Source of the DNA: an uncultured bacterium
GTDB lineage: Bacteria > Krumholzibacteriota > Krumholzibacteriia > LZORAL124-64-63
Length of the DNA: 64,000 nt
Assembly (NCBI GenBank): GCA_963732385.1
Contig: CAVSZB010000003.1
Span: 192,001 to 256,000, forward strand
Direction: 5' to 3'
In this document: positions 18,001-30,000 of the stretch, in pieces
How positions within the stretch are numbered: the stretch's first letter is position 1
Layout: each line of letters opens with the position of its first letter
Made by a program: the position numbers

Positions 18001-21000
18001 TTCGCGGCGTACGCATCGCGCGGGCGGGTGGAAGTGACCTACGACGCCGCCGTCACCGATGTCCCGGCTCTGATCGAGGCGATCGAGGGGCCCGCCTACG
18101 ACGAGGCCGCGCAGGAGTTCCGGTTCGGCGTCTACGTCGTGCGCGAAGTGGATGGCGCGCGGGTCGACCAGCCCTTTCCTTGACAGCCTGCCGATCATTT
18201 TGACGGGCTGAAGATCATTCTGACCGCTTGCAGATCATCATCACAGGAGGCGGATTTCGATGCGCATCAAGAACCTCGCCCTGATTCCCGGCATTCTCCT
18301 GCTCCTGGTCGCGACTTCGGCGCTGGCGGACGAGGCCCCCGCCAAAGACGCCGTGCCGGCCGCCGAAACCGCGATTTTCGCGGTGCCGGGCCTGACCGAC
18401 GCCGCGTTGGTCAAGGATCTGACGAAGGCGCTCGCGAAACACAAGGGGGTCGTCGCCGCGAAGGCGGACGCCGAAACCGGCAAGTTCCTCGTCACCTTCG
18501 AGCCGGGCAGGACCAGCCCCGAGGCGCTGACGCGAATCGTGGCGAAGGTGGCGCCGAAGGCGCATTTCGAAACTGTCCAGGCGGCCGATGGCAAGGCGGC
18601 CGGCGGTGATCCCTGTGGCGGGTGCCCGAGCAAGGCGACCTGCGGCGGGAAGAAGTAGGAGTCGGCGGGAAGCCGTCAGGGCGGACATGGCTCGGGGAGG
18701 GCGGTGCATGACCTGGCGCCGCCCTGACCGTCTCGGGTCGTATCGACCTGCCAGGGGGCCGCGGATTTCAGCAGGTACTTGCAGGACCAGCGTGTAGCCA
18801 GTCTGAGCCGGCGCCACGCGATTGACGCCAGGCTTCCGGCGATGCTAGCATTCGGCAGCCAGACGGGAAAAAGGGGAATATGCGGTTGGACAGCCCGTTT
18901 CCTGTCGTATGGCATTGCCTGAACGCAGGCTCCGTGGAGCCTGGCGAGCAGGTTATCGGAGGCTTCCGGTGGTGAGGGTTTTCGTCCACAAGGAAGCGTA
19001 CTTCGATTCCGTGGTGCTGATGCTCCTCGGCCGGGAACTCAAGGGCCTGCCCGGGGTCACGGATGCCGCGGTGGCCATGGGCACCCCGATGAATCTCGCC
19101 CTGCTGACGTCCATGGGCTGCGCCGCTGGTGACCTCGCGGGGGTCGGGCCTAACGATCTCGTGATCGCTGTGGATTGCGCGGATCCTGCGCTGCTGGAGG
19201 CGGCGCTGGCGGCCGCCGAGACGGCGCTGACTCGCAGGAAAGGCTCGTCCGCGCCCGCGGGCCGGGCCGTGCGCGAGCCCTCGACGCTGGCTGGCGCGCT
19301 CGAGATGTTGCCCGGCGCCAACGTCGTGATGATCTCCATCCCCGGCGTGTACGCCGCGCGCGAGGCGCGCAAGGCGCTCGATCGCGGGCGGCATGTGATG
19401 CTCTTCTCGGACAACGTCACGCTCGATGACGAGATCGCGCTCAAGACGCACGCGCGCGAGAAGGGCCTGCTCGTGATGGGGCCCGACTGCGGTTCGGCGA
19501 TCCTGAACGGCAGGCCGCTCGGCTTCGCGAACGTCGTGCGTCGCGGACCCATTGGTGTGGTCGCCGCGTCGGGCACGGGTCTGCAGGAACTGTCCGTGCT
19601 GATCGACCGCGCGGGCTCGGGCGTCAGCCAGGCGATCGGCACCGGTGGGCGCGATCTCAGGAACGAGAGGGTCGGGGGCATCACCATGCTCATGGGCATC
19701 GAGGCGCTTGCGCGCGACGAGGCGACCAGGGTCATCGTCGTGATCTCGAAGCCGCCGGCGCCCGCGGTCGCCGCGAAGGTCGTCGCCGCGCTCGAGGCGA
19801 CGGGCAAGAGTGCGGTGGTGCATTTCATCGGCCAGGCGCGCGCGGGCGGCCCGGCGCGGTCGAACTCGCGCCTGCGACACGCGACGAACCTCGAGGAGGC
19901 CGCGGGCATGGCGGTCGCCATCGCCGGAGGGCAGAGCTACACGCCGCGCCTGTTCGCGCGGCCGGACGTCGAGATCGACGCGATCGTCGCGCGCGAGACC
20001 GCCGGTATGGCGAAGGCGCAGCGCTGGATCCGTGGCTACTTCACGGGTGGCACGCTGGCCGACGAGGCGTGGATCCTGCTGCACGCGCTCACCGGCGCGG
20101 TGTACTCGAACAACCAGACGGACCCGGCGTTCGTTCTGGCGGACCCCCGTACGTCGGTCGGGCACACGGTGGTGGATCTGGGCGACGACATGTTCACCGT
20201 CGGCCGTCCGCACCCGATGATCGACCCGGGCACGCGCACGGAGCGGATAGACGCCGAGGCCGGCGACGATTCGATCGCCGTCATGCTCGTCGACATCGTG
20301 CTCGGTTATGGTTCGCACGCCGATCCGGCGGGCGCCCTCGCGCCGTCGCTGGTCGCGGCGAAGCAGGCGGCCGCGCAACGCGGGGGGCGCCTCGCGGTGG
20401 TCGCCTCGATCACCGGCACGAACGGCGACCACCAGGGCTACGCGCGGCAGAAGGCGGTGCTCGAGGCGGCCGACGTCGTGGTAATGCCCTCGAACTTCCA
20501 GGCGTCGATGCTGGCGGTGCGCATCCTGGAGAAGGTTCTGGCGAACGCGGCCGGTGCGCGATGAGCGGGCCCGACGTCCAGGCGGTCACCGATTTGTTTG
20601 CGTCCGAACTGGCGGTCATCAACCTCGGTCTGGAGGCCTTCGCGGAGAACCTGCGGGCGTGCGACACGCCCGTGGTGCAGGTGCGCTGGAAGCCGCCGGC
20701 AGGCGGTGACGCGCGCATGATCGAGGCTCTTGACCGCATCGCGAGCAACCCGCGCGTGGATGTCGATGCCGCCAACGCGCTCGCCGCGGAGCGCATCATG
20801 AAGAGCAGGCCGATGCTCATGGGTGTCGGTGTCGCGGGCGAGGTCGTGCCCGGGATGAAGCCGAACATGGTGCTTCACTCCGGTCCGCCGGTGACGTGGC
20901 AGAGGATGTGCGGCCCCCTGAAGGGCGCGGTCATCGGCGGCCTGCTCTACGAGGGCCTGGCGAATACGCGCGCCCAGGCCGAGGACCTCGCCGCTTCGGG

Positions 21001-27000: not shown

Positions 27001-30000
27001 CATGGTTGAGGTCTTCGTTCGTCGGCTGTTGCTGGAGGTGAAGTAATGAAGATCTCGGTCACGGTCAACGGACAGGCTTACGAGCGCGAGATAGTGGGAC
27101 ACCGCACGCTGCTGCATTTCCTGCGTGAGGATGTCGGGCTGACGGGCGCCAGGGAGGGCTGCGGCGCCGGCGAGTGTGGCGCCTGCACCGTACTGCTCGA
27201 CGGGCTCGCCGTGAACGCATGCATGATCCTCGCCGTCGAAGCCGACGGGCGCAGGATCGAGACGATCGAAGGCGAGGCGAAGGACGGGCGGCTCTCGGCG
27301 ATCCAGGAGGCGTTCAGCCGCAATCACGCCGTGCAGTGCGGCTTCTGCACCGGCGGCATGATCATGTCTGTACGCGAACTGCTGGCGCGCAACCCGAAAC
27401 CCACGATTGCCGAGATCAAGGCGGGCATCGAGGGCAACTTCTGCCGTTGCACCGGTTACCAGCAGATCATCGAGGCCGTGCTTGACGCGTCCGGTCAGCT
27501 CACGGAAAAGGGCGGGGTGAAGTATGCATGAGAACGCCGACCCCGGGACGCTGAAGTACGTCGGCAAAAGCAGCGATCGCTCGGAGGTCACCGAGAAGCT
27601 GACCGGCGAGGCCGTCTATACCAGCGACCTGTCGTTTCCCGGCATGCTGCACGCCCAGATCAAGCAGAGCCCGCACGCACGGGCGCGCATCTGCAGCATC
27701 GACACCTCGCAGGCCGAGCGTCTGCCTGGAGTGCGCGCCGTACTCACGGGCGCAGAACTGGACTACCGGCTCGGTCTTTACATTGTCGACAAGCACATCC
27801 TTGCCCGCGGTGAAGTGCGCCACTTCGGCGAAGCCGTCGCCGCGGTCGCCGCGGACACGCTTGCCATCGCCCGGCGCGCGGCCGACCTGATCGAGGTGGA
27901 ATACGCCGTGCTGCCCGCCGTCCTGAACCACATGGACGCACTGAAGGAAGGCGCCCCGCTGGTTCATCCGGACCTTGGCCGGTACGACCACGTCGCCGCG
28001 GCCTTCACGCCGGCTCCGGGCACCAACATCGCGAACCTGACCAGGCTGCGGAAGGGTGACGTCGAGCAGGGCTTTGCCGAATCCGCGTGGCTGATCGAGC
28101 GCGAGTACACGAATCCCTCGGTGCAGCACGTGCCGATGGAGACACACGTCGCGATCGCCGAATGGAAGGCGGGCGACAACATCAACATCTGGTCCAGCGC
28201 GCAGTCGCCGTTCACCGTGCGCAATCTGTTCTGCCATACGTTCGGGCTGCCGCTCAACAAGGTGCGGGTGATGGTGCCGCACGTCGGCGGCGGATTCGGA
28301 GGCAAGGCCGGCATCCATCTCGAGCCCCTCGTGGCCTGCCTCTCGCGCAAGGCGGGCGGCCGGCCGGTCAAATTCCAGGCCACGCGCGAAGAGGAGTTCA
28401 GCCTGCTGCCGTGCCGCAGCGCGCTCACCTACCGGATCAAGACCGGCGTCGCCGCTGACGGCAAAATCATCGCCCAGAAGATGACCATGTATTGGGACGC
28501 CGGCGCCTACGCCGACTACGCGGTGAATGTCACGCGCGCGTCGGGCTACTCCGCTGCGGGTCCCTACGAGATTCCCAACGCCTGGGTGGACGCCTACACG
28601 CTTTACACGAACAAGCCGTACGGCACGGCGTATCGCGGCTTCGGGCACGTTGAGTTCTTCTGGGGGGTCGAGCGCCACATGGAGCTCATCGCCGATGTTA
28701 TCGGCATGGACCCGCTTGAGTTCCGCCGCAGGAACGCGCTCGTGCCCGGTTCGAAAACGTTGACTGGCGAGACGATCACCAGCAACACCGGCGACGTCAC
28801 CCGGTGCATCGACGCGGTTGCCGAGTCGATCGGTTACGGCCGGCTCGATGCTGACGAATCGGCCCGCGAGCAGCGCACCGGCCGCAAGATCGGCAAGGGC
28901 CTCGCGGCATTGCACAAGGCGCCGGCCATGCCGCCGTTCACCGCCTCGGCCATTGTCATCAAGATGAACTCCGACGGCACCGTGGTCGTCAACCTCGGCC
29001 TGACCGAAATCGGCCAGGGCTCCACCACGGCGATGGCGCAGATCGTGGCCGAGCGGCTGAAATTCGATATGGCGAAAGTAAAGATCTGCGTAGACAAGGA
29101 TACCGACCGCGATCCGTACGACTGGCAGACCGTCGCCTCGAAGGGGCTGATCCTGAGTGGAAACGCGGCGATCCTGGCGTGTGATGACCTGCTGGGAAAC
29201 GCGTACAGCGTCGCCGCCCAGGTGCTGCGGGCCCAGGTGCTGGACCTCGATCATGACTCCGAGAAGGTGTTCGTGAAGCACCATCCCGATCACTCGGTGA
29301 CCTTCGCGGCCCTTGCGGTCGGCTATGCGTTTCCCAACGGCAATGCGATCGGCGGTCCGCTCATCGGCGTGGGACGATACGTGGCGCAGGGGCTTTCGAA
29401 CCTCGACAAGGAGACCGGACAGGGCAACCCCGCCCTCGACTGGACCTATGGGGCGCACGGCGTGATCGTGGAGGTGGATCCCGTGAGCGGCGAGTACCAC
29501 GTCCTCAAGATTGCGTCGGCGTTCGACGTCGGCAAGGTGATCAACCCGGAGATCGTGCGCGGCCAGTGCATCGGCGGCATGGTGCAGGGCCTCGGGACCG
29601 CGATCTGCGAAGGCTACATCTACGACGAGCAGGGGCACCTCCTGAACCCGTCGTTTACGGACAACAAGATCCCCACCGCGCGCGATATCCCCGATGTGAT
29701 CGAAAGCATTGCGGTGGAGACGCCGCAGCTCGACGGACCATACGGCGCCCGCGGCGTTGGCGAGCATCCGATGATTTCCGTGGCTCCCGCGCTCGGCAAT
29801 GCCATCAGGCATGCCGTCGGCGCCGAGCTGACGCACATGCCGATTCGGGCCGAGGACGTGTGGCGCGCGATGGGAAACAGGGAATCAATCGATAACTGGA
29901 TCACGAAGACGCCGAACAGGTCCTGCAAAGCGTGAGGTGCGTGAGGGGGCGTGGCGGCGCATACGTACAGCGGTTGCTACGGGAGCAATAAGTGCGCGGC

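Follow-up and report, generated by a model that had tools for sequence, protein, structure and literature searches.

The window, a stretch of 64,000 nucleotides, contains ten genes on the same (+) strand between 18969 and 29935, spaced by -8 to +73 nt and forming one operon.

18969..20564, + strand: allF (fdrA), AllFGH-type transcarbamylase subunit, acyl-CoA-synthetase-like (NF004760 FdrA, 514.7 bits against a cut-off of 433; PF02629 and PF00549)
20561..21994, + strand: allG (DUF1116/YlbE), start ATG 20561 (PF06545, 333.8 bits)
22023..22901, + strand: cyclase-family metal amidohydrolase (PF04199), putative barbiturate ring opener
22975..23667, + strand: GNAT-fold protein of 230 aa from an unmodelled family, fold taken from a structure model, candidate for a malonamate-to-malonyl-CoA step
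23667..24866, + strand: SCP2/archaeal-type thiolase fold without catalytic cysteines (Pro88, Ala298; PF00108/PF22691), proposed malonyl-CoA decarboxylase
24877..25260, + strand: DUF35 partner, Zn ribbon and OB fold (PF12172)
25292..26224, + strand: allH (DUF2877/YlbF; PF11392, 89.2 bits)
26231..27046, + strand: Mo-hydroxylase FAD subunit (PF00941 and PF03450)
27046..27531, + strand: Mo-hydroxylase 2Fe-2S subunit (PF00111 and PF01799)
27524..29935, + strand: Mo-hydroxylase large subunit (MoCoBD domains), proposed uracil/thymine dehydrogenase

The ten genes and their Pfam and NCBIfam families agree with the preliminary description of this locus. The gene caller places the allF start at GTG 18969, and the longest open reading frame begins at 18909; the allG start overlaps the allF stop by 4 nt. 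The cyclase contains an HxGTHxD motif at residue 46, and its closest solved relatives are kynurenine formamidases (E 5e-9). The Mo-hydroxylase large subunit has a catalytic-type Glu motif at 744; it matches 13 NCBIfam models, each below its cut-off, and xanthine dehydrogenase is the best of them. A promoter scan returned one site where 1.2 are expected, and contigs from three RNA libraries match the operon piecewise, mostly at <95% identity, which is not evidence of its transcription.

The GNAT, thiolase-fold and DUF35 genes (the trio) recur in a near clade of loci, for which all neighbour counts refer to the best 80 of 317 GTDB loci. The earlier counts are reproduced exactly (thiolase-fold 80, DUF35 75, cyclase 55, AllG 51, FdrA 50 and Mo large subunit 47 of 80), except that AllH is present in 44/80 loci by tblastn and not in 16/80. 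The five loci without DUF35 stop at most 2 nt from the thiolase match, allF and allG are fused in 15/80 loci, and carbon-nitrogen hydrolases diverge from the trio in 12–14 of the 80. Where the trio lacks an adjacent operon, other operon genes lie elsewhere in the genome (cyclase in 5/5, AllH in 5/5 and AllG in 4/5 further genomes). The GNAT gene had been said always to lie directly before the thiolase gene; this holds in the near clade, with a gap of -4 to +10 nt in 80/80 loci, but not in the distant clade, where a thiolase is found in 1/80. A GntR regulator also occurs among the operon neighbours.

As previously described, the GNAT protein belongs to no modelled family (no Pfam or NCBIfam match). 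Of 3338 candidates, 2556 are homologs at E<=1e-5, some of these labelled archaea, and the best 120 are 74–100% identical, close to the 73–100% first given. One narrow query detects it in 317 GTDB species, and in the phylum of G008 a scan of 301 genomes finds it in G008 alone. The structure model (pLDDT 93.7) bears out the GNAT fold: the best match is 1yre (Z 13.2, rmsd 3.3, 165 aligned), and the top 50 fold rows are all GNATs. Nine near-invariant residues (D78, R86, E90, R120, S129, H131, E167, S168 and H191 in the numbering of alignment A3) correspond to D59, R67, E71, R101, S110, H112, E148, S149 and H174 of the window protein, and an RxxGxG-like CoA loop, R118-G119-x-R121-x-G123, is conserved in at least 90% of alignment A2. 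A profile search of PDB sequences gives just two matches, both at E>1, and an Atlas search returns clusters that are unnamed or loosely labelled Acetyltransf. No match is found on plasmids, and none among fusion proteins of 432–2000 aa at E<=1e-6 with alignment A1, the latter being weak evidence.

The name thiolase, previously taken to denote a working enzyme, fits only the fold of the second trio protein (Foldseek TM 0.84 to 7yvy and 0.87 to 6esq). Pro88 aligns with the nucleophilic Cys (CxS motif) of both structures, the sequence ENGPASG is present in 81/81 copies, and Pro also stands at this site in the L136 copy at 53% identity. The second cysteine site, HDCF in the SCP2 type, reads ELHDAF in 77/81 copies, the remaining four being truncated; 7yvy likewise has HDAF, yet keeps its nucleophile, and a paralog in the window's own genome retains both cysteines. 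Since both catalytic cysteines are missing, the protein is not a thiolase, although databases name its family acetyl-CoA acetyltransferase. Its bit scores are 269 to archaeal thiolases, 101 to Ltp2 and 44 to the SLP protein of T. brucei. According to the available part of PMC12329534, the Ltp2 and Sal aldolases and SLP likewise combine a thiolase fold with a missing nucleophile, and Ltp2 and Sal have a DUF35 partner; unlike in those proteins (YDHF/YDCY/YDCF), the motif here is HDAF, with His296 in place of the catalytic Tyr of Ltp2 and Sal. The same part reports that SLP, which offers a precedent for the decarboxylation proposed here, acts on malonyl-CoA very slowly (kcat 0.005 per s) and that Sal, a related Cys-less protein, has no malonyl-CoA decarboxylase activity. 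An SCP2/archaeal thiolase fold followed by a four-Cys DUF35 protein (here with all four Cys invariant in 43/43 sequences) also characterizes the thiolase/HMG-CoA synthase/DUF35 complexes (6esq; PhlABC, 5m3k; MucABC, PMC12960953). Unlike in those complexes, nucleophile Cys88 of PhlC is Pro here, the third gene is a GNAT, and the context is catabolic. No HMG-CoA synthase/KAS III-fold gene is found among the ten operon genes, and no such recurring cluster is recognised among the neighbours.

The trio had also been regarded as an inseparable module, yet the GNAT of a sister (distant) clade, 80 loci at 31–40% identity to the near type, is found in the same operon without thiolase and DUF35; the single thiolase in these loci stands behind a second, near-type GNAT. 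In the phylum of G006, 43/93 genomes carry the GNAT, and the Pro-thiolase is present in just the four of them with a near-type GNAT and absent from the other 39. All 38 AllG-bearing genomes of this phylum carry the GNAT, and none of the 50 GNAT-free genomes has AllG. MmdA/C/B-type genes occur in 12/80 sister-clade loci; mmdA lies directly behind the GNAT gene in G098–G102, where in G098 and G102 it is the second mmdA of the genome, and Mmd neighbours require at least four separate places on a quick tree. The Na+-translocating methylmalonyl-CoA decarboxylase (MmdA/D/C/B) here fills the thiolase/DUF35 position, although its fold is unrelated, it is biotin- and membrane-dependent, and it is absent from the window operon. 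Neither decarboxylase is near the GNAT in 68/80 sister-clade loci, and carbon-nitrogen hydrolases directly precede it in 5/80. Mutual exclusion of trio and MmdA at the genome level is ruled out: 71/93 genomes of the phylum have MmdA-like genes, the four trio genomes among them, and the window's own genome also carries at least one.

FdrA was earlier listed apart from AllG and AllH. All three genes are in the operon, and because FdrA is AllF (PMC11326118), they form a complete AllFGH transcarbamylase. The sole measured AllFGH reaction is that of oxalurate/oxamate (PMC11326118). The locus resembles the E. coli oxamic transcarbamylase AllFGH with carbamate kinase AllK (PMC11326118) in having all three subunits and, often, an adjacent carbamate kinase (10/80 and 5/80 loci; on another contig in the window's own genome). 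Unlike in E. coli, there is no AllD to supply oxalurate: TIGR03175 has no match in the window's own genome, which is 95.8% complete, and none over cut-off in 5/5 genomes, with a positive E. coli control. Furthermore, E. coli makes no further use of oxamate, whereas the extra GNAT and decarboxylase genes imply that the amide product is used here.

Neighbouring permeases, carbamate kinase, GntR and decarboxylases, absent from the earlier description, indicate which compound is degraded and in what sequence the reactions would run. NCS2 permeases of several subtypes are encoded in 35/80 loci. Of eight tested, six have their highest score with uracil permease/RutG, one of these exceeding the equivalog cut-off, and two score higher on xanthine permease; two of two further permeases also favor uracil permease/RutG. 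A uridine phosphorylase over cut-off is present in locus L130, and dihydropyrimidinase and PreA genes adjoin L011 and L136. Locus L167 combines a sister-clade GNAT, a carbamate kinase, a barbiturase (611 bits to 5hwe, compared with 317 for cyanuric acid hydrolases) and a Mo enzyme to which the window's large subunit is 74.3% identical over 803 aa. The barbiturase link rests on this one locus, whose upstream part ends 157 nt before the GNAT gene, so that replacement of the cyclase is not readable there. The L167 barbiturase has no tblastn match in the window's own genome, nor has a uracil-permease query; the AtzD/TrzD family is found in 0/5 genomes (no positive control responded), and in the phylum of G009 a scan of 301 genomes yields none over cut-off and no second barbiturase-GNAT locus. 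Of two actinobacterial barbiturase loci, L183 has no Mo enzyme within 9 kb, and L184 has a partial one at 33.6% identity that is not usable as a uracil dehydrogenase reference. Taken together, the permeases of uracil type, the carbamate kinase and uridine phosphorylase genes, and the single barbiturase next to a Mo enzyme of 74% identity point to pyrimidines.

Most likely, the operon breaks down uracil or thymine through barbiturate independently of O2. With good confidence, the substrate is a pyrimidine degraded via barbiturate, and the trio probably converts a C3 unit of malonyl type to acetyl-CoA or acetate. The Mo hydroxylase would oxidize uracil (thymine) to barbiturate (5-methylbarbiturate), and the cyclase would open the ring to ureidomalonate, the task of barbiturase elsewhere. 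AllFGH would then phosphorolyse ureidomalonate to malonamate and carbamoyl phosphate, a one-carbon-longer analogue of oxalurate to oxamate, and carbamate kinase would make ATP. The GNAT, as an N-acyltransferase in reverse, may convert malonamate and CoA to malonyl-CoA and ammonia. Amide thiolysis is uphill by roughly 15–20 kJ/mol at standard state, which counts against this step; the Cys-less thiolase and DUF35 would pull it by decarboxylating malonyl-CoA to acetyl-CoA at the kept His/oxyanion site, a role that the biotin/Na+-pumping decarboxylase would take in the sister clade. This exact division of labour, read throughout from gene context, could equally be otherwise. The claim of an undescribed CoA-linked anaerobic N-heterocycle pathway is supported and narrowed to pyrimidines via barbiturate, shorn of its working thiolase and inseparable trio; no description of the system was found in the literature, with subscription journals and supplements outside the search.

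The available part of PMC3758960 describes oxidative pyrimidine breakdown as rare and as proceeding from uracil through barbiturate and ureidomalonate to malonate and urea, via barbiturase and ureidomalonase. It shares with the present proposal a Mo-type oxidation followed by ring opening, and in L167 a true barbiturase homolog, the Mo enzyme of 74% identity and a GNAT of the sister clade lie side by side. Unlike in that pathway, cyclase, AllFGH and carbamate kinase would replace barbiturase and ureidomalonase, no barbiturase-family gene being found in the window's own genome, the carbon would end as a CoA ester, and most hosts belong to uncultured lineages of the kind found at anoxic sites.

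The same pathway and decarboxylase would also operate if the GNAT were a CoA-transferase, making malonyl-CoA (malonamoyl-CoA) and acetate from acetyl-CoA and malonate (malonamate); the trio would then be a soluble cycle that decarboxylates malonate and releases acetate as its end product. This unlikely but still appreciable alternative draws on L066, where the trio follows a nitrilase and an ActP/MctC-type monocarboxylate symporter and no AllG is found in the genome, a context that fits malonate as well as malonamate; on the carbon-nitrogen hydrolases beside both clades; and on L184, where a family III CoA-transferase, a carboxyltransferase and a carbamate kinase precede the barbiturase, with no GNAT in that 19-kb stretch. 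The core operon, however, lacks a further amidase that could strip off the amide nitrogen, and we know of no GNAT-fold CoA-transferase; both points count against it. GNAT-fold decarboxylases do exist, and a conserved Ser-Pro ending a core strand with a later conserved His recalls the LSP motif of two MCD-family proteins. The GNAT might then be the malonyl-CoA decarboxylase, with the thiolase-fold protein loading CoA or cleaving malonamoyl-CoA. Such a swap of roles is quite improbable: the GNAT persists without the thiolase in 39/43 genomes of the phylum of G006 and would bypass the Na+-pumping decarboxylase encoded immediately behind it. Comparison by hhalign with a shallow malonyl-CoA decarboxylase (PF05292) profile of just two sequences gives a probability of 0.2%, and no MCD is among the top 50 fold rows, though neither result is decisive.

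Alternatively, the substrate may be a purine, hydantoin or other N-heterocycle, with oxalurate as the substrate of AllFGH, just as for the E. coli enzyme. In its favor are the one AllFGH reaction that has been measured (PMC11326118), the below-cut-off xanthine dehydrogenase match of the Mo enzyme, the two xanthine-leaning permeases and biuret-pathway-like genes beside L014 and L017. It is nevertheless rather improbable, given the missing AllD, neighbours that include barbiturase, uridine phosphorylase, uracil permeases and malonyl-type decarboxylases, and a C3 decarboxylase that would be superfluous for oxamate. Highly improbable is a regulatory GNAT acetylating the ligase-like FdrA subunit beside an ordinary acetyl-CoA acetyltransferase; the database name of the thiolase-fold family and Pat/PatZ domains among the fold matches suggest it, but dozens of other GNATs match equally well, every complete copy lacks both thiolase cysteines, and the trio also exists in the absence of AllG.

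An oxygen-independent oxidative pyrimidine pathway is, as a whole, the best explanation and one that we hold with about even confidence; it would join the observed genes, folds, missing cysteines and co-occurrence through inferred reactions. If true, it is a barbiturase-free route that saves ATP via carbamoyl phosphate and recovers carbon as acetyl-CoA, common among lineages from sediments, digesters and peat (317 GTDB species; 43/93 genomes in the phylum of G006). It would give AllFGH a second substrate, assign a function to an orphan GNAT family of >2,500 members and correct the naming of the thiolase-fold family. More tentatively, the locus may exemplify a widespread energy-conserving anaerobic pyrimidine fermentation in bacteria and archaea, with four unassigned activities: a cyclase-fold barbiturase, an ATP-yielding ureidomalonate transcarbamylase, a GNAT forming a CoA thioester directly from a primary amide at no cost in ATP, and a channelled malonyl-CoA decarboxylase, interchangeable with a Na+ pump, into which the thiolase/DUF35 scaffold would have been remodelled by exchanging Cys for Pro and the HMG-CoA synthase for a GNAT. 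All steps are testable with purchasable substrates and soluble proteins.

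The ten-gene operon on the plus strand of the window is real and conserved. It contains allF/fdrA, allG, allH, a cyclase gene, the genes of a three-subunit Mo hydroxylase, and a trio encoding a 230-aa orphan protein, a thiolase-fold protein and a DUF35 protein, with intergenic gaps of -8 to +73 nt. The operon and its surroundings are as follows:

18969..29935 (+), the ten-gene operon
30456-35955 (+), [FeFe]-hydrogenase-type cluster of three subunits, immediately 3' of the operon
31044-33200 and 32971-34191, two overlapping frames over which the flavoprotein gene of this cluster is split, an apparent frameshift
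16985-18658 (+), 4Fe-4S membrane protein and two HMA-domain proteins, 250-310 nt upstream of the operon and common only to locus L001
12760-13854/15367-16458 (-), duplicated gene pair of no known family, upstream of the operon
592-3540/4562-7492 (-), second duplicated gene pair of no known family, also upstream

The [FeFe]-hydrogenase-type cluster is a possible electron sink for the operon; comparison of neighbours at 80 loci did not identify it as a conserved neighbour. Neighbours of GNATs of the window's clade (near-type) were counted at the best 80 of 317 GTDB loci. The numbers in the preliminary description were reproduced exactly for the thiolase-fold protein (80), DUF35 (75), cyclase (55), AllG (51), FdrA (50) and the Mo large subunit (47); AllH, previously counted in only 16, is present in 44 of the 80. 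The GNAT-to-thiolase gap is -4 to +10 nt at all 80 loci, and carbamate kinase occurs at ten. A single 1030-aa allF-allG fusion gene is found in 15 of the 80 loci (e.g. L036, L039 and L042-L045), and at some other loci a separate gene encodes the initial 58 AllG residues. In L014 (17974-20637) and L017, genes for a BiuH-like hydrolase, an AtzF C-terminal-like protein and a permease run convergently towards the end of the operon.

The 230-aa orphan matches no Pfam or NCBIfam model, and 2556 of 3338 candidates are homologs. Its proposed GNAT fold is upheld by a model with pLDDT 93.7 (fold match Z 13.2, rmsd 3.3, 165 aligned). A profile-free search of cluster representatives recovered relatives down to ~30% identity, labeled as Firmicutes-type, Coprothermobacterota, Caldisericota, Asgard, Hadarchaea and Nitrososphaerales. 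The family keeps Arg, His, Glu and Ser residues across clades, a set that would suit a small anionic substrate.

Reading the second trio member as a thiolase does not hold, as Pro88 replaces the nucleophilic Cys in alignments to 7yvy and 6esq. The motif ENGPASG is present in 81/81 copies and HDAF in 77/81; contig ends truncate the remaining four. A more divergent copy (53% identity) is in line with this. As an internal control, a 41% identical paralog in the same genome (C3:264659-265801, minus strand) keeps both catalytic cysteines. His296 and His346 are invariant in 43/43 aligned sequences, 42 of the 80 loci having been picked for full length. Ketosynthases lacking the Cys work as decarboxylases, and a nucleophile-free thiolase fold with a retained His site appears compatible with decarboxylation. 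The catalytic Tyr of Ltp2/Sal aldolases, in the motif taken from PMC12329534, is missing here; that paper describes T. brucei SLP as decarboxylating slowly and Sal as showing no such activity.

The GNAT had been described as inseparable from the thiolase and DUF35 genes. This stands for the near-type loci, all 80 of which carry the thiolase, but not for a distant sister clade in the same operon type, where among the best 80 of at least 547 metagenome loci (many on short contigs, 68 with at least 600 nt downstream) the only thiolase sits behind a second, near-type GNAT. Neighbours at these 80 are cyclase (41), AllF (34), AllH (31), AllG (27), the Mo large subunit (25), NCS2 permeases (15), MmdA-type decarboxylase subunits (12) and carbamate kinase (5). 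A quick tree was built from 121 rows, among them 17 of the 81 near-type ones. It places the thiolase-linked GNATs together on one side of a branch (support 100), and five changes, at least four of them forced, are required for the decarboxylase label. Among 93 genomes of the phylum of genome G006, 43 carry the GNAT, including all 38 with AllG; the Pro88-type thiolase occurs only in the four with a near-type GNAT, leaving out four weaker matches (266-351 bits). In G098-G102 mmdA immediately follows the GNAT gene, with an extra copy in two of these. Speaking against a clean swap of trio for MmdA, MmdA-like genes occur in 71 of the 93 genomes, all four trio genomes included, and in the window's own genome.

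FdrA, previously listed apart from AllG and AllH, is AllF, a subunit of the AllFGH transcarbamylase. The E. coli enzyme converts oxalurate and phosphate to oxamate and carbamoyl phosphate, according to PMC11326118. No AllD was found in the window's own genome, and thus an acyl-urea other than oxalurate is the likely AllFGH substrate here. PMC12625717 takes allFGHK of nitrifiers to serve the use of oxalurate; barbiturate is not mentioned in its accessible part.

We propose that the Mo enzyme would oxidize uracil to barbiturate, which the cyclase would open to ureidomalonate. AllFGH would then yield malonamate and carbamoyl phosphate, from which carbamate kinase could form ATP. The GNAT would convert malonamate to malonyl-CoA and ammonia, and the thiolase-fold/DUF35 pair would release acetyl-CoA and CO2, a role that the MmdA-type decarboxylase, a Na+ pump, would fill in the sister clade; thymine as the starting compound would lead to methylmalonyl-CoA and propionyl-CoA. 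Two features put the GNAT upstream of decarboxylation: no other member is as constant, and its gene lies before either candidate decarboxylase. Amide thiolysis is uphill and requires low ammonia or pull by decarboxylation, which would account for the tight coupling of the trio; it is more difficult if the following step pumps sodium. The main rival to such thiolysis, that the GNAT acts as a CoA-transferase, seems rather unlikely.

Several neighbours bear on uracil as the substrate. NCS2 permeases occur at 35 of the best 80 of 317 near-type loci, and 28 of 33 called permease proteins carry the E-N-x-G signature, which we take to be uracil-type. The best-scoring model is uracil permease or RutG for six of eight tested (one above the cut-off), and two lean to xanthine. 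Locus L167, whose upstream side lies beyond the contig end, has a barbiturase that scores 611 bits against 5hwe and 317 against cyanuric acid hydrolases; with it lie carbamate kinase, a GNAT of the sister clade and a Mo enzyme 74.3% identical to the window's. A search with the barbiturase family in 301 genomes of the phylum of genome G009 found no second such locus. Other neighbours are uridine phosphorylase (L130), dihydropyrimidinase and PreA (L011, L136) and, below cut-off, cytosine-deaminase-like genes (L130, L160). Where the trio stands alone, cyclase and AllH are elsewhere in the genome in 5/5 cases, with allF-allG adjoining the cyclase in 4/5; AllG is elsewhere in 4/5 further such genomes. 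The exception is G008 (Desulfovibrionaceae), which has no AllG match and where a monocarboxylate symporter and a nitrilase accompany the trio (L066:7288-12289). This arrangement also points to a three-carbon unit and would be a second entry route, its compound possibly cyanoacetate.

As proposed, the operon would resemble in function the oxidative pyrimidine pathway (PMC3758960) joined to AllFGH/AllK logic, but the definition of neither fits it. It also falls outside the HMGS/ACAT/DUF35 complexes, for whose mining PMC12960953 demanded an HMGS domain; the accessible text of that paper does not contain the term 'GNAT'. No description of the system was found in the literature searched; subscription papers and supplements, outside this scope, may bear on the point.

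A third GNAT subtype (P0164 type) occurs in L189, L193, L196 and L202, in the first two near a 545-aa double-length cyclase and a Mo enzyme. Two GNAT subtypes coexist in several genomes, perhaps for uracil versus thymine. In Embleya, a family III CoA-transferase, a fused carboxyltransferase, carbamate kinase and barbiturase lie in a row (L184:5048-10107), and a carbon-nitrogen hydrolase at L184:16051-16950 is 49% identical to the hydrolase divergent from the trio in L026.
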